A stretch of 7,025 bases of DNA. Source: Promethearchaeota archaeon. GTDB lineage: Archaea; Asgardarchaeota; Thorarchaeia; Thorarchaeales; Thorarchaeaceae. Each line of letters opens with the position of its first letter. Position 1 is the first letter of the stretch. The notes under the pieces were generated by a model that had not been told where the DNA came from, did not search any database, and worked only from the letters and a program-made list of their open reading frames with translations. Below are positions 1-7,025 of the stretch, piece by piece. The stretch is from assembly GCA_027031765.1 (NCBI GenBank), contig JALVPN010000201.1, positions 1-7,025 of the forward strand, read 5' to 3'. Made by a program: the position numbers and the translations under genes.

Positions 1-1
1 C

Positions 2-445
2 GGTATTGGCGTCCGCCTTGTTTCCGAGCCGGCGGACATCGAGCACATCTACGACCTGTTGAAGTTCCACCTCAGGGCCAACCAACAGGGTGCATTCATG
101 CTCCAGGAGTACGTCCACAACTCGGGCTTTGATATCCGGGCGCTCGTGGTCTGTGACCGTCTGGTGGCGAGCATGCAGCGTGTGCGACACGGTGCCTTTC
201 CCACGAACATCCACCAGGGCGGTGTGCCACGGCCCAACGACAGGGATGTCAGTGAGCTGGCAGTGGCTGCGTCCAGGGCCGTCGGGGCCGTCATCGCTGG
301 CGTTGACCTGATCCCTGATGCTGACGGCAGGCTGTGGCTGCTCGAAGTGAACGGTACCCCTGCATGGGAGGGCCTCCAGTCGGTGACCACCACTGACATC
401 ACACACCGCATTGTGGACTCCCTTGTAGGCCTCCTCGACCGGTGA
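2..445 (+). CDS. RimK/LysX-family ATP-grasp ligase (alpha-L-glutamate ligase-like), C-terminal part; 5' end lies outside the window
   Basis: Frame is open from position 2 (GIGVRLVSEPADIEHIYDLLKFH...). It shows ATP-grasp hallmarks: end of the G.GV.L loop, MLQEYV..SGFDIRALVV, TNIHQGG, GVDLI and the catalytic LLEVNGTPAW (E-x-N). Ends at TGA 443-445. The 59..445 call in the ORF track is an internal TTG. Confidence 0.92.
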   Translation, partial: GIGVRLVSEPADIEHIYDLLKFHLRANQQGAFMLQEYVHNSGFDIRALVVCDRLVASMQRVRHGAFPTNIHQGGVPRPNDRDVSELAVAASRAVGAVIAGVDLIPDADGRLWLLEVNGTPAWEGLQSVTTTDITHRIVDSLVGLLDR

Positions 446-694
446 ACATGGCCTGCCCGCCGGGTGCCCATGACCTGTCTGGGGACCGCACTGCACTCTG
501 CCCCGCAGCCCTGTCATGTCCCGGTCTGGCACGGTGCGGCACAGCACATGTCACTACAGGACCCGTCATCGGCCCGAGTGGCCTGTGCCGGGGCTGGTGC
601 GGTGGCCCTCTCAGATGGTCAGCGGGTCGGTCCGCCCTGTGTCCCTGCCGTCCACCAGTCATATGTGGGCCCGGGCCAGTGAGAACGGTCATGA

Positions 695-709
695 GGATAA
701 ACTTTTAAG
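695..709 (+). promoter_or_regulatory. Archaeal-type promoter (BRE + TATA box) for the 832..3591 unit
   Basis: GGATAAAC (purine-rich, BRE-like) followed by TTTTAAG at 703-709. It is the first A/T-run island after about 240 nt lacking AA/TT and lies about 120 nt upstream of the TTG start. Confidence 0.7.
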
Positions 710-739
710 CGACCCTTTGCGGGGGGAGCACACGTCGAA

Positions 740-814
740 GGACTCTGGGGCGTCTTATGACGCCCAATTGAGAGGAATCCGCCCTGTTCAGCAGGGCTGT
801 AAGACGATGTTCTT
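740..814 (+). other. Putative structured 5' leader (tandem hairpins) of the coiled-coil gene
   Basis: Perfect 7-bp stem GGGCGTC-TTAT-GACGCCC (748-765), extendable by CTCT 743-746/AGAG 771-774 and GGA 740-742/TCC 778-780. It abuts a second hairpin GCCCTG(T)-TCA-(G)CAGGGC (781-797). A weak third stem AAGA..TCTT lies at 801-814. Confidence 0.4.
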
Positions 815-831
815 GAGTTGAGGTTCGGAGT

Positions 832-1995
832 TTGACCGAAGCGGCCGAGACCACCACCGAAGACATAGAGTTCCTGCGAGCGCGCCTCAGAGAGCTCAAG
901 AGTCAGGCACGGAGAGACCTCGAGGAACTCCGCAGATACCGCGACAAGATGAGAGAGTACAGGGCAATACGTGACGAGCACAACCGTGAGGTGAGGAGCC
1001 TCATCGAGTCCGTCAAGGCTGAGCGCGAGGCACGCGACCGCATCAATGCCCAGATACAGGAGCTGAAGGAGCGACGTTCGGCTCTGCACAGGCAGCTCAA
1101 AGAGATCTACGATGAGATCAGGGAGCTGCGTGGCAGCATAGTCGGCAGCCCCTCCTCAGACCAGCGTCGTATGATGCGTCGTGTGGAAGAACTCGAGTGG
1201 CGCCAGCAGACAGAACCCCTCACTCTCGAAGAGGAACGTGCCATCGTCGAGGAGATTGCCCGCATCGAGGCGAAGCTTGTCAAGATTGGCCAGGAGAAAG
1301 AGAAACAGGACCGCATCAGCGAGCTCCGCCGGCTGGCACGACGCCTCAAGGACGAGGCCTCGAAGGTCCACCAGCAGGTGCTCGAACTCTCCGAACAGTC
1401 ACAGATACACCACCTGCAGGTGGTACAGTGCCGAACGAAGCTCGAAGAGTACAAGCGTTCTGCCGACACCGCCCACCAGAACTTTGTCGAGTGGCTCAAG
1501 AAGGTCAAGGAGGGCGAGGCACAGCTCAAGAAGCTCCGCGCCGAGATCGCTGAGATTGAGGCCAAGATAAAGAAGTGGGAGGCCGAACACGGCCGCGTCG
1601 ACCGGCGTGCACAGGCCCGGATGGCCGAGTGGGAGCGTGCCCAAGAGGCAGTTGCAAAGCTCGAGTCCGGCAAGCGTCTGACCTTTGACGAGTTCATAAT
1701 CGCACAGCGCTATTCCGAGAGGGCCCGTCGTGAGAAGCGGGCCGGGAGGGGCGCTCGTGAAGAAGAGAGCACTCCTGCTGCTGATGCGACCGAGAGTCCC
1801 GGGGCAGGCGGGTCTGATGCTGGACAGGAGACCGGGGATGCCGACACGGGCCCGGCAGGTGCCGCAGAGCCCACCAGTACGGCGGCGGAGGTCGTCGAAG
1901 GATCCAGTGCCACCAGCACATCAGGGGAGGACGCGGCAGGGCCGGGGTCACCAGCGTCCGGGGACACCACCGGGGAAGACATCAGCGAGGAGTAG
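832..1995 (+). CDS. Archaeal coiled-coil protein (COG1340-like) with a ~93-aa acidic low-complexity C-terminal tail
   Basis: 387 aa, E/K/R/L-rich heptads. Motifs ELEWRQQTEPLTLEEERAIVEEIARIE and AQEAVAKLESGKRLTFDEFII resemble the 'QQT..L..EEE' and C-terminal 'GEKLT.EDL' signatures of COG1340 proteins as recalled. TTG start with GAGG/GGAG upstream. Confidence 0.85.
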   Translation: MTEAAETTTEDIEFLRARLRELKSQARRDLEELRRYRDKMREYRAIRDEHNREVRSLIESVKAEREARDRINAQIQELKERRSALHRQLKEIYDEIRELRGSIVGSPSSDQRRMMRRVEELEWRQQTEPLTLEEERAIVEEIARIEAKLVKIGQEKEKQDRISELRRLARRLKDEASKVHQQVLELSEQSQIHHLQVVQCRTKLEEYKRSADTAHQNFVEWLKKVKEGEAQLKKLRAEIAEIEAKIKKWEAEHGRVDRRAQARMAEWERAQEAVAKLESGKRLTFDEFIIAQRYSERARREKRAGRGAREEESTPAADATESPGAGGSDAGQETGDADTGPAGAAEPTSTAAEVVEGSSATSTSGEDAAGPGSPASGDTTGEDISEE

Positions 1996-2061
1996 GCGGC
2001 CCACATCAGAGGCCCGTCCCCTTGTGGCTGCGGACACCACTGTAGGGCAGGGGGTACGTCT

Positions 2062-3321
2062 GTGAGCAGTGCGAGTCAGAGGCCTGTTGGTCGTCGTTCA
2101 GCAGCACTGGTCTTCTACCTCCTCGCAATGGGCTCTGGCGTGATGCGGACGGTCTCGGTCGTCTTCGATGTGGTGGCACTCAACACGGTGCTCCCCCAGC
2201 CGCTCGCCTTCGGCCTGCTCTCACAGTGGGTGAGCTTTCTCGTCACAGCCACCGCCATTGTGTTCCTCAGTGTCCCGCACACCGTGGACGGACACCGGCG
2301 GGCACTCGGCTACTCCCTAGACCCTGACTTTGGTAGGATTGGCCTCCTGCCACGCCGGCCGCTGGCATACATGGCACTGGCAGGACTGTTTGCAGGTGTG
2401 TCGACGTTCTTCTACTACATCCTTGTCGGTTCCACCGATGCCTCTGCGGTCCTCCCATATGGCCAGCTCGTGCTCGTGTACCTCCTCCTGGGTGACCTCG
2501 TGTCCGAGAAGGACACCCCCACCATTGTCGAGGTGCAGTGCGTCCTGTCCGTCATGATTGGCGTGATGCTCGTCGGCGTGTCACCCGGGGGCTTCGATGT
2601 CATGACGCTGCTCGTCGTCCTGGGGCCCATGAACGTGGCCTCGGCACTGGTGACGTACTTCCAGCGCCAGACAAAGCGGATGGAGGTCGGACCGGGGCTC
2701 CACGTTGACTCCCTGAACATGCGGCTGTGGTCACTGCTCTTCCTGGACCTGACCTTCACGGCCCTCGTGCTCCCACTGCTCGGCCCGTCCGACTATGAGC
2801 TGATGGTCACCAACTTCGTCCCGCTCCTGTGGCTGATGGTCGGCTCCTCCCTGACGATTTTCCTCTCCCTGGTGTTCTACGTCCGCGCCCTCGGCAGGGG
2901 CTCCATGGCCGTTGTGAACTCCCTCGCGTCAGTGTCCGTCGTGCTGGGCCTCCCACTGACCGTGGTCGGTGACCTGTTCCTGCCCGGTGCCTTCGGAGAG
3001 TTGCCTTCCGACCCCTTCACATGGTCGCTCCGCCTCTTCGGCGTCCTCCTCGTGATGATAGGAGTGGTCGCACTGGAGGCTGCCGATGTCCGCTCAATCG
3101 TCCTGATCTCTGTCCGCACCGGGACTGGCGACATCCTGCCCGCGCTCTTTGACATCAAGGGTGTAGAGAAGGCCTCAGCAGTGGCCGGTACCTTCGACTA
3201 CCTGCTGTGCATCAAGAGCCGCAGCCTCGGCAAGACCCGCACCAACATACTCAAGAGGGTGCAGGAAATCGAGGGCGTCATCGAGGTGAGGACGCTCGTC
3301 GTGCTCAGGGACTACCGCTAA
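2062..3321 (+). CDS. EamA/DMT-superfamily 10-TM transporter fused to a C-terminal Lrp/AsnC ligand-binding (RAM) domain
   Basis: Ten hydrophobic segments in two EamA-like repeats (FYYILVGSTDASAVLPYGQL...IGVMLV; FYVRALGRGSMAVVNSLASV...GVLLVMIGVVAL). Residues 343-419 (nt 3088-3318) show the RAM beta-alpha-beta-beta-alpha-beta pattern with G-T-F-D and VQEIEGVIEVRTLVV. GTG start with GGGGGT SD at 2050-2055. Confidence 0.88.
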   Translation: MSSASQRPVGRRSAALVFYLLAMGSGVMRTVSVVFDVVALNTVLPQPLAFGLLSQWVSFLVTATAIVFLSVPHTVDGHRRALGYSLDPDFGRIGLLPRRPLAYMALAGLFAGVSTFFYYILVGSTDASAVLPYGQLVLVYLLLGDLVSEKDTPTIVEVQCVLSVMIGVMLVGVSPGGFDVMTLLVVLGPMNVASALVTYFQRQTKRMEVGPGLHVDSLNMRLWSLLFLDLTFTALVLPLLGPSDYELMVTNFVPLLWLMVGSSLTIFLSLVFYVRALGRGSMAVVNSLASVSVVLGLPLTVVGDLFLPGAFGELPSDPFTWSLRLFGVLLVMIGVVALEAADVRSIVLISVRTGTGDILPALFDIKGVEKASAVAGTFDYLLCIKSRSLGKTRTNILKRVQEIEGVIEVRTLVVLRDYR

Positions 3322-3345
3322 CTGTTCCATGGGGTGAGACTCGAA

Positions 3346-3591
3346 TTGACAGTCATGGCCTACATCCTTATGGTCACCGAAATCGGCCGGACCGATGAGG
3401 TGATAGAACAGCTCCGCCTCGTCAATGAGGCGGTGCGCGTCGCAGTCACCACGGGAGAGTATGATGTCGTCGTGCTCGTGGAAGTGGACGACCTTGCAGC
3501 ACTGTATGATGTCACCGTGCAGCGGATCCACAAGATACCGGGCATAGTCGCCACCACCACCGCCGTCGTCGAGAAGATGATATCGGTGTAG
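3346..3591 (+). CDS. Stand-alone Lrp/AsnC ligand-binding (RAM) domain protein with no HTH (COG1522-type, 'demi-FFRP')
   Basis: (M)TVMAYILMVTEIGRTDEVIEQLRLVNEAVRVAVTTGEYDVVVLVEVDDLAALYDVTVQRIHKIPGIVATTTAVV, with canonical TGEYD and I.KIPGI..T.T motifs. TTG at 3346 is preferred because GGGGTGA (3331-3337) is an SD at correct spacing. Alternative starts are GTG 3334 and ATG 3355. Confidence 0.92.
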   Translation: MTVMAYILMVTEIGRTDEVIEQLRLVNEAVRVAVTTGEYDVVVLVEVDDLAALYDVTVQRIHKIPGIVATTTAVVEKMISV

Positions 3592-3745
3592 GACGCACCG
3601 GACAGCAGGGTGTGGGCCAGCTACCTGACGGTGGGCGACACCTGCCACCTCCTCAGACACAGCCCCCGGATCGGCATACCGGTGAAACCGGCCCAGTCCG
3701 ACCACCGACGACAGCCCCTGCCCCCATGGACTAGATGTATGCTCT

Positions 3746-3762
3746 GTTGTCAACCCTTATTT
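3746..3762 (+). promoter_or_regulatory. Probable BRE/TATA promoter for the ABC transporter pair
   Basis: CAACCC-TTATTT (TATA-like at 3757-3762) is the main A/T-run island in this intergenic region, about 105 nt before ATG 3869. A GTTG-T-CAAC palindrome at 3746-3754 overlaps the BRE position. Confidence 0.5.
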
Positions 3763-3868
3763 GCCCGGTCTGCTGACCAGTGTGGGACTGTGGAGGGCCC
3801 CATACCATGTACCGGCCAGGACAGTACTGACCGCGTCAGACACGGGGCCCGTCTGGTCGTGATGTACC

Positions 3869-4813
3869 ATGGACGAGGTCGTTACAGAGAACCTCTCTAA
3901 GCACTTTGGCGAGACCGTGGCTGTTGACGGCATTGACATGACAGTGCCACAGGGCGCTGTGTTCGGCCTCCTTGGCCCTAACGGTGCCGGCAAGAGCACC
4001 ACGGTGCGGCTCCTCTGCACGCTGCTCCGTCCGACCTCGGGCGGCGCGGTGGTGGCAGGGCACAACATCCTTGAAGAGCCAGTCGAGGTACGCAGGGTCA
4101 CGGGCGTGCTCCCTGAAGAGGGGAGCCACACGGTGTACCCGTCAATGACAGTGTACGAGAACCTCGAGTACTTCGCCCGGCTGTACGGCCTGCCAGAAGA
4201 GACCATCCCAGCTGAGATCGAGCGGCTCCTCAAGTTCATGGAGCTGTGGGAACGTCGCGATGACCGTGCAGGCGAGCTGAGCACCGGCAACCGGCAGCGG
4301 CTGGCGCTCTGTCGTGCGCTCATCCACAGGCCACGTGTACTGCTACTGGACGAGCCCACCGCCTCGCTCGACCCCATTGCCGCAAGACGTGTGCGCGAGC
4401 TCATCCTGCGCCTGTCAAAAGAGTACCAGCAGACGTTCTTCATCAACAGTCACAACCTCGCTGAAGTGCAGCGGGTGTGTGACCACATAGCCATCATCGA
4501 CAATGGGAAGATCCTCCTTGCCGGGCCCACCGACGAGCTCCGGAAACGGCTCCGGGCCCGACAGGTGTTCCGTATCAGGGTGTACGGCGACACCGGTACC
4601 GCCGAAGAGGTGGCATCGACAGCCGAGTTCGTGCACTCGGTGGAACGTGATGCCGACTGCCTCCTCGTGACGGTCGACGACCCGGTGGAGAACAACTCCC
4701 GCCTGATGCGCCTGCTCCTCGATGCAGGTGTCAAGATCGTGGAGTTCGCCGAAGAGGAAGCCACCCTTGAAGACCTGTACCTCCAGGTCGTCCGCGGAGG
4801 GGGTGATGCGTAG
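3869..4813 (+). CDS. ABC-2 type exporter ATP-binding subunit (DrrA/NatA/CcmA-like) with C-terminal extension domain
   Basis: Walker A GPNGAGKST, Q-loop region GVLPEE, signature LSTGNRQ, Walker B VLLLDEP, D-loop TASLDP, H-loop NSH, and C-terminal EEATLEDLYL typical of this subfamily. Confidence 0.96.
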   Translation: MDEVVTENLSKHFGETVAVDGIDMTVPQGAVFGLLGPNGAGKSTTVRLLCTLLRPTSGGAVVAGHNILEEPVEVRRVTGVLPEEGSHTVYPSMTVYENLEYFARLYGLPEETIPAEIERLLKFMELWERRDDRAGELSTGNRQRLALCRALIHRPRVLLLDEPTASLDPIAARRVRELILRLSKEYQQTFFINSHNLAEVQRVCDHIAIIDNGKILLAGPTDELRKRLRARQVFRIRVYGDTGTAEEVASTAEFVHSVERDADCLLVTVDDPVENNSRLMRLLLDAGVKIVEFAEEEATLEDLYLQVVRGGGDA

Positions 4814-5571
4814 TGGACATCCGCAAGTCAATGGTCGTGGCCCGTGCCGACATCAGGATGGCCATGAAGGTCGGATACGTCAAGTACAGCGTCATCGCCC
4901 TCAGTGCCATGGGCCCAGTCATCGCATGCCTGTCCATCATCGGGATCTCGGCGAGCGTACCCGCAGGCGTTGACAAGGTGACGTTGCTCAACATGTTCAT
5001 CCCCCTCGCGGCGGCCCTCCTCACAATGATGTCCATCGTCCCCGCCACCATGATCGCCGCCAACGCACTGGTCGGCGAGCGCGAACAGAATACCCTCGAG
5101 CCACTGCTCGCCACACCCCTCACAGATATCGAACTCGTGGTCGGGAAAATGCTCAGCTCCCTCCTCCCAACCCTCGCAGTACTGTTCTCCGGCACGGCGG
5201 TGTCGTCAGTCGTCGTGTTCTCCGGCACCCTCCTGCTGAGCGGCGACCCGGTGCTCTTCCCCGACCCGCCAGGCCTTTTCCTGATTGCCTGCATCGGGCC
5301 TGTCGTGGCACTCTCCGTCGTGTCCGTCATGATACTGATAAGCAGCAGGGTCAGACGCGTCTACGAGGCATACCAGACCGGCGGCGCAGTCGTGATGCTC
5401 CTCATCATCCCACTGATGCTGCCCATCGCCGGCCTCGAGTCCCCGGCCAGCACCGACTACGTGTGGGGTGTGAACCTCCTGACCTTCCTGCTGGCAGTCC
5501 TGCTTGCTGTGGTGACGTGGGCCATGGCACTCCGTAACTTCAACCGCGACTACATGATATCTCTGCGGTAG
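4813..5571 (+). CDS. ABC-2 type exporter permease (about 6 TM)
   Basis: Hydrophobic 252-aa protein with the ABC-2 motif LVGEREQNTLEPLLATPL...GKML. The GTG start overlaps the ATPase TAG by 1 nt (TAGTG), with SD GGAGGGGGTGA inside the upstream gene, indicating translational coupling. Confidence 0.92.
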   Translation: MDIRKSMVVARADIRMAMKVGYVKYSVIALSAMGPVIACLSIIGISASVPAGVDKVTLLNMFIPLAAALLTMMSIVPATMIAANALVGEREQNTLEPLLATPLTDIELVVGKMLSSLLPTLAVLFSGTAVSSVVVFSGTLLLSGDPVLFPDPPGLFLIACIGPVVALSVVSVMILISSRVRRVYEAYQTGGAVVMLLIIPLMLPIAGLESPASTDYVWGVNLLTFLLAVLLAVVTWAMALRNFNRDYMISLR

Positions 5572-5650
5572 ACCGACTGCAAGGGCGTACCCGGCCGGGT
5601 CCACGGGCCCGGCACGCCCACCGGGGAGGCAGGGACACCTGCCATGAGGC

Positions 5651-5758
5651 TGCACGGCACCTGGTGCATACTGTCCTGCTACGTGATGAGAACGCCCAGT
5701 CCCCGGTCGCATATGTCCGGGAGTGTACGGCACCTGATGCATGCTGTCCTGCCACCTG
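5651..5758. repeat. Two 35-bp imperfect direct repeats (5651-5685 and 5724-5758), 73-nt period
   Basis: tgcacggcacctggtgcatactgtcctgctacgtg vs tgtacggcacctgatgcatgctgtcctgccacctg: 30/35 identical without gaps, separated by 38 nt. Confidence 0.8.
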
Positions 5759-5824
5759 GCTGTCCACTATGCACCAGGGCCCCGACCGGGGCGTGACGAC
5801 CGACTGCGCCACTGTCTGCTGCAG

Positions 5825-6349
5825 TCATCCCTCGGCCACGAGCCTGTCAGCGTACGTCCGCGCGAGCTCCCTGTATATGGCCTTGTGCCTTGCGAGCTCC
5901 TCCCTGTGCTCAGGCCTGAGGTCACCGATTACGCGCGCCGGTACACCCACGGCCACCTTTCCGGCCGGTATCTGGGAGCCCTGCGTGACGACCGCGCCCT
6001 CTGCAACGACGGCCCATCTCCCAACGACGGCAAAGTCGGAGACCACCGCCCTGATCCCTATGACCGCGAGGTCATCGACCACGGCGTTGTGCACCACGCA
6101 GCCGTGTCCCAGCGTGACCTCCTCACCAATCACCGTCCTGCCTTCAGGCCGTGCGTGCACTATCACGTTGTCCTGGACGCTCGTCCCTGCGCCCACCACG
6201 ACCTCGCCATAGTCACCACGGATGACCGCCCCAGGGAGGACGATGCACTCCTCGCCAATCGTGACGTCTCCAATGACGGTGGCCGAGGGGCTCACGAACG
6301 CTGAGCTGGCTACCCTCGGGTGCCTGTCACCAAATGCGTACACTGTCAT
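5825..6349 (-). CDS. Gamma-carbonic-anhydrase-like / hexapeptide-repeat protein (COG0663; YrdA/PaaY/CaiE family)
   Basis: MTVYAFGDRHPRVASSAFVSPSATVIGDVTIGEE...IRGD...SVQDNVIVH...LGHGCVVH: hexapeptide repeats and all three Zn-ligand His positions are present. ATG 6349 is preferred because it matches family N-termini and has GGTGG upstream. The ORF track start at 6397 adds 16 atypical residues. Confidence 0.93.
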   Translation of the reverse strand: MTVYAFGDRHPRVASSAFVSPSATVIGDVTIGEECIVLPGAVIRGDYGEVVVGAGTSVQDNVIVHARPEGRTVIGEEVTLGHGCVVHNAVVDDLAVIGIRAVVSDFAVVGRWAVVAEGAVVTQGSQIPAGKVAVGVPARVIGDLRPEHREELARHKAIYRELARTYADRLVAEG

Positions 6350-6430
6350 GTCTTCAACCACCGGCCTCTGGACGCCACCCTGCCCCTCCCCACTCATCTA
6401 GTTTACGGCCCCGCATGACCGGCCCACGGC

Positions 6431-6443
6431 CGAAACGTTAAAG
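6431..6443 (+). promoter_or_regulatory. BRE + TATA promoter for the 6499..6900 gene (may also serve the divergent gene)
   Basis: CGAAA-CG-TTAAAG fits the archaeal BRE-TATA layout. On the minus strand it reads CTTTAACG. Confidence 0.6.
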
Positions 6444-6498
6444 GCCAGCCGCACGTCTCTGTCAGGGGGACATCTTGCGTGTTGTTGGTGGTCCAAAA

Positions 6499-6900
6499 AT
6501 GAACGATGATGAGGTTGGGCACCCGGAGGACGTGCCCCTGTTCCCAATCCTGCGTGGCGAGTCAGTTGGGGAGAACGGCGAGCTCAGTGGCCATGCCGTA
6601 CTTGTGTTCAGACCCGAACAGCTCAACCGCGAGTGGGGGCCTGACGACATTGCAGTCCTCAATAAAGACCTTGAGGACCACTTCCGTGACAACCCGGGCG
6701 ACCTCGACTCACTGCTCGCCCAGGTCAGAGGCGTCATCGCAGAGTTCGGCGAGCCTGTCGGCGACCTCGCGTCCCTCGCCTACGTACGGGAAGTGATATG
6801 TATCACCAAGACAAGGGACGCGACGTTCGTCCTCGAAGATGACATGCACATACGCCTGGTGGCAAACGAGAACACTGGTGAGGTCTTCTTCATAGACTAG
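6499..6900 (+). CDS. Stand-alone PEP-utilizing-enzyme mobile (swiveling beta/beta/alpha, phosphohistidine-carrier-like) domain protein, degenerate at the phospho-His
   Basis: Aligns by eye to the PF00391-type pattern along its length: ILRGESVG..GELSGHAVLVFRPEQL...GPDDIAVL...GVIAEFGEPVGDLASLAYVREVICI...DATFVLEDDMHIRLVANENTGEVFF. Start is ATG 6499 (GGTGGT SD) or TTG 6475 (AGGGGGA SD). Confidence 0.75.
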   Translation: MNDDEVGHPEDVPLFPILRGESVGENGELSGHAVLVFRPEQLNREWGPDDIAVLNKDLEDHFRDNPGDLDSLLAQVRGVIAEFGEPVGDLASLAYVREVICITKTRDATFVLEDDMHIRLVANENTGEVFFID

Positions 6901-7025
6901 CCGCAGACCGTCCGCGCCCCCGGACACTGGCCCGCCCCGTCCACGTCACGACCGGCGGCCCCAGGGGGCCACCCAGACGACTGCCCACCACCAGTGACAC
7001 GGGTGCCACGGCCCCGACCGTGGGC

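Follow-up and report, generated by a model that had tools for sequence, protein, structure and literature searches.

Outside its place as the effector part of DNA-binding regulators, the RAM domain is hardly known. What, then, does it do at the end of a membrane protein? This question is raised by a gene in a stretch of 7,025 nucleotides (nt) from a Promethearchaeota archaeon of the Thorarchaeaceae (assembly GCA_027031765.1, contig JALVPN010000201.1, positions 1 to 7,025 of the forward strand), which was analyzed in its full length and is called the window below. A preliminary description, made from the sequence alone, had read this gene as an EamA-type permease with a cytoplasmic RAM domain, which might act as an amino-acid-gated exporter or as a transceptor. 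The fusion of a DMT-fold permease with ten transmembrane (TM) helices to a complete cytoplasmic RAM domain is confirmed as genuine and conserved, and it is encoded next to a small free RAM protein (Table 1). The module formed by the two genes is uncharacterised but widespread in archaea, and we see an even chance that it is a metabolite-gated, probably amino-acid-gated, DMT transporter with a sensor made of a tethered and a free RAM domain.

The fusion gene, its distribution and its two folds

The fusion gene is a single open reading frame (ORF) of 419 codons, the first of which is GTG. This start is right, since the orthologues share the N-terminus MSSxSQRPV and nearly all of them are exactly 419 amino acids (aa) long. 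As described before, the permease continues in frame through the four residues EAAD into a complete RAM domain of 77 aa, which scores above the cut-off of PF01037. In the AlphaFold2 model the last TM helix stops at residue 340 and the first RAM strand begins at residue 343, and the linker has the same length across the orthologues of the Thor group. The motifs AGTFD and IEGVIEVRTLVV (previously given as IEGV.EV.T.VV) were found in the tethered RAM domain at residues 375-379 and 403-414, respectively. A G-D-L motif had been noted in both halves of the membrane domain. The first one (144-146) is invariant in the Thor orthologues, whereas the second one (303-305) is peculiar to this sequence and mostly reads G-N-L in the orthologues.

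A word-indexed search returned 244 homologues of the fusion, and the best 120 of these are nearly all 419 aa long, 58-68% identical over the full length and mostly named from metagenome-assembled genomes of Thorarchaeota. An exhaustive search through 1.84 billion cluster representatives yielded about 30 fused forms of full length (378-426 aa), with identities down to 25% and source names that include Baldr-/Odinarchaeota, Asgardarchaeia, Heimdallarchaeaceae, Hodarchaeales, Nanohaloarchaea and Woesearchaeota (Asgard and DPANN archaea). The ESM Atlas holds a similar cluster (TM-score 0.81), in which Thermoplasmatota is the commonest phylum. Among 301 Asgard genomes of at least 80% completeness the fusion is present in 124, with one match each except in two genomes. 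It was found in 64 of the 70 genomes of the window's own family and in all sampled members of several other Asgard families, and in none of the 92 genomes of the largest Asgard family in this set. The window's own genome (95% complete) carries one copy. In a look-up of sequencing runs, one DNA run contained this stretch, a hydrothermal-vent metagenome that is probably the source sample, and no RNA run was listed.

Two variants were seen beside these forms. One Asgard family (f25; P0133, G107, G170, G203, G209 and others) has a longer form with open frames of mostly 463-485 aa, in which homology begins only at about model position 65 and the N-terminus is different or extended. The protein P0187 (564 aa), which is among the distant matches, has three to four tandem RAM domains (PF01037, 96 bits in three stretches).

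It is scarcely conceivable that the fusion arises from read-through between two genes or from an assembly chimera, or that its tail matches PF01037 by chance. Stop codons between the two parts, which the preliminary description had named as the sign of such an artefact, are practically missing in the homologues: internal stops occur only singly and in 4 of 126 matches. More than 120 independent genomes, closed chromosomes among them, share the uninterrupted frame and show hardly any stop at the junction, and the tail has the fold of a RAM domain and scores above the Pfam cut-off. A read-through or assembly artefact is excluded.

The hydropathy of the fusion protein shows ten hydrophobic segments, and the AlphaFold2 model, which was built on 23 orthologues (pLDDT 72.8, pTM 0.68), has ten long helices at residues 14-42, 47-70, 98-124, 127-148, 155-171, 180-204, 217-239, 242-279, 282-306 and 318-340. 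In an exhaustive structural comparison with VIA-align the membrane part matched the choline importer LicB (7b0k) with a Z of 23.0 over 252 aa at 2.8 Å, followed by the triose-phosphate translocator (TPT, 5y78; Z 20.5), SLC35B1 (19.3), PfCRT (18.6) and YddG (5i20; 18.3), which are all carriers of the DMT superfamily. The top 14 Foldseek matches of the model are likewise all DMT proteins (E 2e-4 to 1e-3).

The label EamA-type did not stand when PF00892 was run. The fusion reaches only 12.1-13.7 bits (E 0.08-0.25) in one region, against a cut-off of 28.2 and usually two matches per protein. Distant fused relatives score higher on this model (P0164 38 bits, P0151 25.9, P0146 24.2). The assignment to DMT is therefore based on the fold and on distant family members, not on a Pfam match of this sequence. 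A profile search of the PDB with the fusion alignment returned only RAM proteins (2cvi, 2cg4 and 2e1a; E 4e-4 to 9e-3 for the stand-alone ones) and no DMT chain, so that sequence alone does not place the membrane domain. The internal repeat, tested with hhalign by aligning the profile of the N-terminal half with that of the C-terminal half, was not significant (E 0.042, probability 1.2%); TM3-5 were aligned to TM8-10 in the correct register, and the helix count fits 5+5. The fusion has conserved motifs of its own, namely LDPxF in loop 2-3, EKDTPT..E at TM4-5, DSLNxR before TM7 and RALGxG after TM8. D36, E157, G167, D216 and R221 are invariant across the whole fused family, and the charged ones among them (D36, E157, D216 and R221) fit a working carrier. 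The membrane part is a divergent DMT-fold clade that is overlooked by the Pfam EamA model and not a textbook EamA protein.

The clusters of arginine and lysine at the N-terminal end and within loops 2-3, 6-7 and 8-9 are located where they had been placed before, and the N-in/C-in topology that had been derived from them is well supported. Over 26 diverse family members the mean number of lysines plus arginines is 15.2 in the predicted cytoplasmic segments and 1.6 in the external ones. This topology puts the RAM domain, which four residues link to TM10, on the cytoplasmic side. Conservation of the cytoplasmic and the outer face of the membrane domain (0.49 vs. 0.42) differs too weakly to argue for a docking surface.

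The identity of the C-terminal domain was likewise upheld, since PF01037 gives 30 bits for the whole protein and 34.5 bits for residues 335-419 alone, with a cut-off of 25. In the AlphaFold2 model it forms a beta-alpha-beta-beta-alpha-beta unit over residues 343-414, which matches the stand-alone RAM proteins TTHA0845 (2djw) with a Z of 12.8 and STS042 (2zbc) with 11.8. By fold the fusion protein is a member of the DMT superfamily (TC 2.A.7), and by Pfam and fold a member of the RAM family. A library scan of the fusion and of the free RAM protein gave no match to any helix-turn-helix (HTH) family, and the first 340 residues of the fusion are membrane helices where Lrp/AsnC regulators have their HTH. 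The name 'Lrp/AsnC family transcriptional regulator', found on some database records, is a misnomer for this protein, which lacks an HTH.

The free RAM protein and its relation to the tethered domain

The gene of the free RAM protein begins twelve bases past the stop codon of the fusion, with TTG 3346 or ATG 3355 as possible alternative starts. Loci were gathered in bulk for the Thor group only; this set comprises 63 loci from species-representative genomes together with loci fetched by identity, and 62 records have enough downstream sequence. In 60 of these 62 a free RAM gene (about 83 aa) lies downstream of the fusion, at most about 40 nt away or overlapping its end. Both exceptions are one and the same closed chromosome of Thorarchaeota, CP070658. 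There, a 157-aa gene downstream of the fusion (L001:7415-7888 = L029) was considered as a RAM partner and rejected, as it is not RAM-like and belongs to no known family.

In five distant lineages (Odin/Baldr, Heimdall, Asgardarchaeia, Woesearchaeota and one other) the free RAM gene lies directly upstream of the fusion, at a distance of 2-25 nt or overlapping. The remaining neighbours in these lineages are unrelated to those in the Thor group, where a RimK-like ATP-grasp protein, a DUF7121 coiled-coil protein, a DrrA-type ABC ATPase, an ABC-2 permease and a hexapeptide transferase surround the pair. Because these Thor-specific neighbours are not kept outside that group, the conserved unit is the two-gene pair. 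The fusion protein had been treated as a self-contained unit and has to be seen instead as one half of a module with the free RAM protein. No gene for an Lrp regulator is conserved at the Thor and distant-lineage loci, and the neighbour that is conserved, the free RAM protein, lacks an HTH.

The free RAM protein is well conserved, with a mean column identity of 67% in an alignment of 32 sequences from six lineages. BLASTP gave no alignment between the tethered and the free RAM domain; the two are therefore not recent duplicates but old, divergent paralogues. They carry opposite charges: the net charge of the tethered domain is +3 to +7 (mean +5.0, 23 Thor orthologues), that of the free protein is -5.5 on average in the 32 sequences. 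The genome of the window also holds about 13 further RAM domains in short and full-length frames, several of which (81-123 aa) are of the stand-alone type.

When residues 338-419 of the fusion were modelled together with the free RAM protein, the predicted complex had an ipSAE of 0.79, compared to 0.00 for the best of three controls, which indicates that the two domains lend themselves to a RAM-dimer model and not that they prefer each other over self-pairing. This mark is attained by 58 of 80 solved complexes and by 2 of 110 mismatched pairs. Contact agreement between runs was at least 97% and the pLDDT of the partner at least 88. The predicted interface is that of the canonical strand-swapped RAM dimer, with strand 369-378 of the fusion against 75-85 of the free protein and strand 410-419 against 34-43. 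A precedent for mixed assemblies is the hetero-octamer that the full-length Lrp protein FL11 is reported to form in vitro with the stand-alone RAM protein DM1 (PMC2995911). Given the conserved pairing, the charges and the model, the tethered and the free RAM domain may bind each other.

The residues that bind the ligand in characterised relatives were compared in both domains. In Grp (ST1022) of S. tokodaii the amino group of the ligand is bound by D102 of the loop G99-x-x-D102 and its carboxylate by T132 and T134 of a neighbouring dimer, so that the pocket lies between dimers (PMC2504300). In the free RAM protein none of the 32 sequences lacks G41, D44 or T74, and T76 is present in at least 90% of them. 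The tethered domain has G376, D379 and T411, and the first threonine of T-x-T is replaced by valine or isoleucine (V409 here). G376 is kept in 92% and D379 in 88% of the diverse fused forms. On this signature the ligand of the RAM assembly may be an amino acid.

A proposed ligand-gated carrier and its alternatives

We propose that the first gene encodes a DMT-fold secondary transporter, the last helix of which leads via four residues into the cytoplasmic RAM domain, and the second a small soluble RAM protein of opposite charge. Both RAM domains would assemble beneath the transporter as a RAM dimer or perhaps into a larger oligomer. The ligand pockets of Lrp/AsnC proteins are formed between RAM dimers. 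Anchored four residues away from the membrane, a RAM domain is probably unable to close an Lrp-type oligomer alone, and for this reason the free partner would be needed to complete the pockets between the dimers. A small molecule of the cytoplasm, most probably an amino acid, would bind to the RAM assembly and alter it, and the short linker would relay the change to TM10, by which the transport cycle is locked or released. We weakly prefer an uptake carrier that is shut off by its own accumulated substrate (trans-inhibition, as in MetNI) over an exporter that is opened by excess; the coupling of the RAM assembly to transport, like the direction of transport, is inferred. Of the amino-acid-gated transporter proposed in the preliminary description, the fusion with a complete cytoplasmic RAM domain stands, whereas the amino acid as ligand is deduced.

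Nothing in the archaeal fusion loci indicates a substrate, and the leads come from relatives and from gene content. Unfused proteins of about 340 aa were also among the results of the exhaustive search; they match no Pfam family, and their homology extends across all ten helices (hhalign probability 99.8%, E 2.5e-30). Their contigs look bacterial and the two host genomes that were examined (G301 and G449) are about 1 Mb in size. In five of five distinct loci they adjoin trpS, the gene of the tryptophan-tRNA ligase (TIGR00233 above cut-off); the locus L079 also has a TrpE-like gene, and L077 a TrpD-like gene upstream as well as BtpA. From their gene context these relatives look like a tryptophan-supply module, which provides a lead to tryptophan or a related aromatic compound and to uptake. 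In searches around one bacterial carrier the unfused form was present in 3 of 201 genomes phylum-wide and in 2 of 13 order-wide. Among the Asgard carriers of the fusion TrpA is rarer than expected (7 overlaps vs. 21 expected), and the same is true for IGPD, the histidine control (20 vs. 43). The window's genome has no match to TrpA (PF00290) or IGPD (PF00475). This pattern, which is confounded by kinship, says only that the carrier lineages are poor in genes for amino-acid biosynthesis.

Several points weigh against a mixed, amino-acid-binding sensor. The ipSAE may mirror family likeness only, as RAM homodimers have been solved and the controls were unrelated proteins and not RAM domains. The tethered and the free RAM domain could form separate homodimers instead, and the positive charge of the former could merely reflect its position beside the membrane. 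CP070658 has the fusion and no orthologous free RAM protein, neither adjacent nor elsewhere on the chromosome (best match 58.7 bits), and therefore the partner is not strictly obligatory and evidently can be lost. One of the two conserved threonines is missing in the tethered domain. Ligands other than amino acids occur, as DM1 responds to 2-oxoglutarate (PMC2995911), and some RAM-like domains bind no ligand at all; AhbA/B, which is RAM-like by fold, is an enzyme. Regarding the substrate, the bacterial unfused relatives are only about 23% identical and may transport something else. A tryptophan-specific auxotrophy of the carriers was considered and rejected, since IGPD is depleted as well as TrpA and the pattern is confounded by phylogeny.

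The characterised amino-acid carriers of the bacterial EamA/DMT type, YddG, EamA and RhtA, are exporters, and the preliminary description had by mere analogy to them put forward an exporter, here taken as a substrate-activated exporter of an amino acid or metabolite. Excess cytoplasmic ligand on the RAM assembly would open it, and it would act as a post-translational overflow valve in place of the gene pair of Lrp regulator and exporter. YddG is indeed among the fold matches (Z 18.3). Moreover, genes of Lrp/AsnC regulators often lie next to those of the EamA-type carriers under their control, as in PA2577/PA2576 (PMC8707732), and the fusion could be a shortcut of this circuit. However, importers and exchangers match the fold equally well, among them the choline importer LicB (Z 23), TPT and SLC35 proteins. 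The nearest unfused relatives have trpS as a neighbour, in two cases in a genome of about 1 Mb, as would fit uptake, and overproduction that needs export seems less likely in lineages that mostly lack TrpA and IGPD. What evidence exists thus leans to uptake, and we regard the exporter as rather unlikely. Structural service without any ligand is a further explanation, in which the pair of RAM domains would be a module for dimerisation or stabilisation of the transporter. The tethered domain without the first threonine of T-x-T, the one genome that keeps the fusion without a dedicated partner and the prediction that several archaeal Lrp-like proteins do not bind amino acids (PMC2995911) all agree with it. 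It is nevertheless very improbable in our view, as G41, D44 and T74 are invariant and T76 nearly so in the free RAM protein across six lineages, and G376 and D379 are kept in most diverse fused forms.

The module could also serve transcription. In such a transceptor or membrane-sequestration device the tethered domain would capture the free RAM protein or a full-length Lrp protein depending on transport state or ligand, and would control transcription in the manner of PtsG-Mlc or AmtB-GlnK, with regulation of transport secondary or absent. In its favour, the genome has about 13 further RAM domains, among them full-length frames, the free partner is soluble and complementary in charge, and RAM proteins of different kinds can hetero-oligomerise, as FL11 and DM1 do (PMC2995911). 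Against it stand the conserved neighbour without an HTH and the lack of a conserved Lrp regulator gene at the locus. In addition, the ten-helix domain is strongly conserved, and the invariant D36, E157, D216 and R221 within the membrane or at its interface speak for a working carrier and not for a mere anchor; we consider this explanation improbable. A more specific form of the gated carrier that we prefer would have the basic tethered and the acidic free RAM domains arranged as a mixed ring or arc under the membrane, similar to the four-plus-four RCK ring of MthK, which binds a cytoplasmic amino acid, possibly tryptophan, at the interfaces between dimers and gates, perhaps also clusters, the DMT carriers. 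In such detail the proposal is doubtful.

Neighbouring genes, known systems and meaning

Other genes of the window are listed in Table 1 together with the parts of the module and the trpS-linked relatives. The position of the DUF7121 gene is kept in the Thor loci and in L072, not in other lineages, and the arrangement of DrrA-type ATPase and ABC-2 permease is kept in the Thor loci and L072 only. The start of this permease overlaps the stop of the ATPase at 4813, and a gap of 277 nt separates the ABC genes from the RAM pair.

Table 1. Features of the window and loci of the unfused relatives
Feature	Position	Strand	Basis
Fusion gene: DMT-fold permease with C-terminal RAM domain (P0001)	2062..3321	+	ORF, 419 aa
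Membrane domain, aa 1-338: ten TM helices, DMT fold, N-in/C-in	2062..3075	+	AlphaFold2 model, structure comparison
Four-residue linker EAAD, aa 339-342, between TM10 and RAM	3076..3087	+	sequence; model
Tethered RAM domain, aa 343-419, basic (net +5), G376-x-x-D379 and T411	3088..3318	+	PF01037, fold
Free stand-alone RAM protein (P0122), 85 aa from GTG 3334, acidic (net -6), G41-x-x-D44 and T74-x-T76	3334..3591	+	PF01037, 46.4 bits
DUF7121 coiled-coil protein, directly upstream of the fusion	832-1995	+	75 bits, weak SMC-like matches
DrrA-type ABC ATPase, then ABC-2 permease, downstream of the RAM pair	3869-5571	+	TIGR01188, 270 bits, below its cut-off
ORF, 141 aa	6475-6900	+	no Pfam match at E <= 0.01
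Unfused homologues beside trpS	L075:4001-5035, L076:4001-5050, L077:4001-5041, L079:633-1652, L083:1282-2334		

The solved DMT carriers (LicB 7b0k, YddG 5i20, TPT 5y78 and the SLC35 nucleotide-sugar transporters) have the same ten-helix fold as the fusion, with a Z of 17-23 over 250-300 residues, and the same N-in/C-in topology. The fusion differs from them in that it falls below the Pfam EamA cut-off and has its own conserved motifs. To our knowledge, and unlike the fusion, none of these carriers has a ligand-binding domain on the cytoplasmic side or a soluble partner of its own. With the Lrp/AsnC (feast/famine) regulators such as Grp ST1022, FL11 PH1519 and E. coli AsnC it shares the effector domain PF01037 and probably the dimer interface, whereas the HTH is theirs alone. 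The stand-alone RAM proteins ('demi-FFRP': P. horikoshii DM1 2cvi/2e1a, S. tokodaii STS042 2zbc and T. thermophilus TTHA0845 2djw) have the same fold and size as the two RAM domains here and the same positions of G-x-x-D and T-x-T, apart from the first threonine in the tethered domain. No membrane protein is known as their partner, whereas here one copy is covalently attached to a transporter and a neighbouring gene encodes the other. DM1 binds amino acids and forms mixed assemblies with a full-length Lrp protein, and the physiological role of the stand-alone RAM proteins has been called unclear (PMC2995911).

In its mode of operation the module may be likened to systems of other families. In the methionine ABC importer MetNI a small cytoplasmic ferredoxin-like C2 domain locks the carrier once it has bound the amino acid that is transported (trans-inhibition). 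This is alike in principle, but MetNI is of the ABC ATPase subunit class, uses another family of regulatory domain and has no free partner subunit. The gating ring of the K+ channel MthK has four tethered RCK domains and four soluble ones, the latter made from a start inside the same gene; in AmtB-GlnK the free sensor GlnK is encoded adjacent and not fused. Both resemble the present case in that a membrane transport protein is placed under a cytoplasmic ligand-binding assembly of tethered and/or free small subunits, whereas the folds differ. The fusion would thus work like MetNI, MthK and AmtB-GlnK without being a member of these systems. It may also be a post-translational version of the link between Lrp regulator and EamA carrier genes.

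We know of no description of a DMT secondary carrier that is under direct allosteric control of a ligand-binding domain fused to it. Full-text literature searches gave no paper on a DMT-RAM fusion. A survey of the transporters of Asgard archaea goes no further than 'uncharacterized DMT families' (PMC7997004).

If the proposal is true, metabolite sensing would have moved from transcription to the transporter itself, and the long-unexplained stand-alone RAM proteins would obtain a concrete partner. In the more specific form with a mixed ring or arc, this would be their first physiological role, and the module would represent a class of secondary transporter with allosteric regulation that has not been described before and is widely kept in Asgard archaea. 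The trpS link of the unfused bacterial cousins offers a concrete and testable lead to the substrate. Several Asgard families carry the module near-universally and in a single copy and mostly lack TrpA and IGPD, the markers of tryptophan and histidine biosynthesis; the module may therefore be central to amino-acid supply in these uncultured relatives of eukaryotes.

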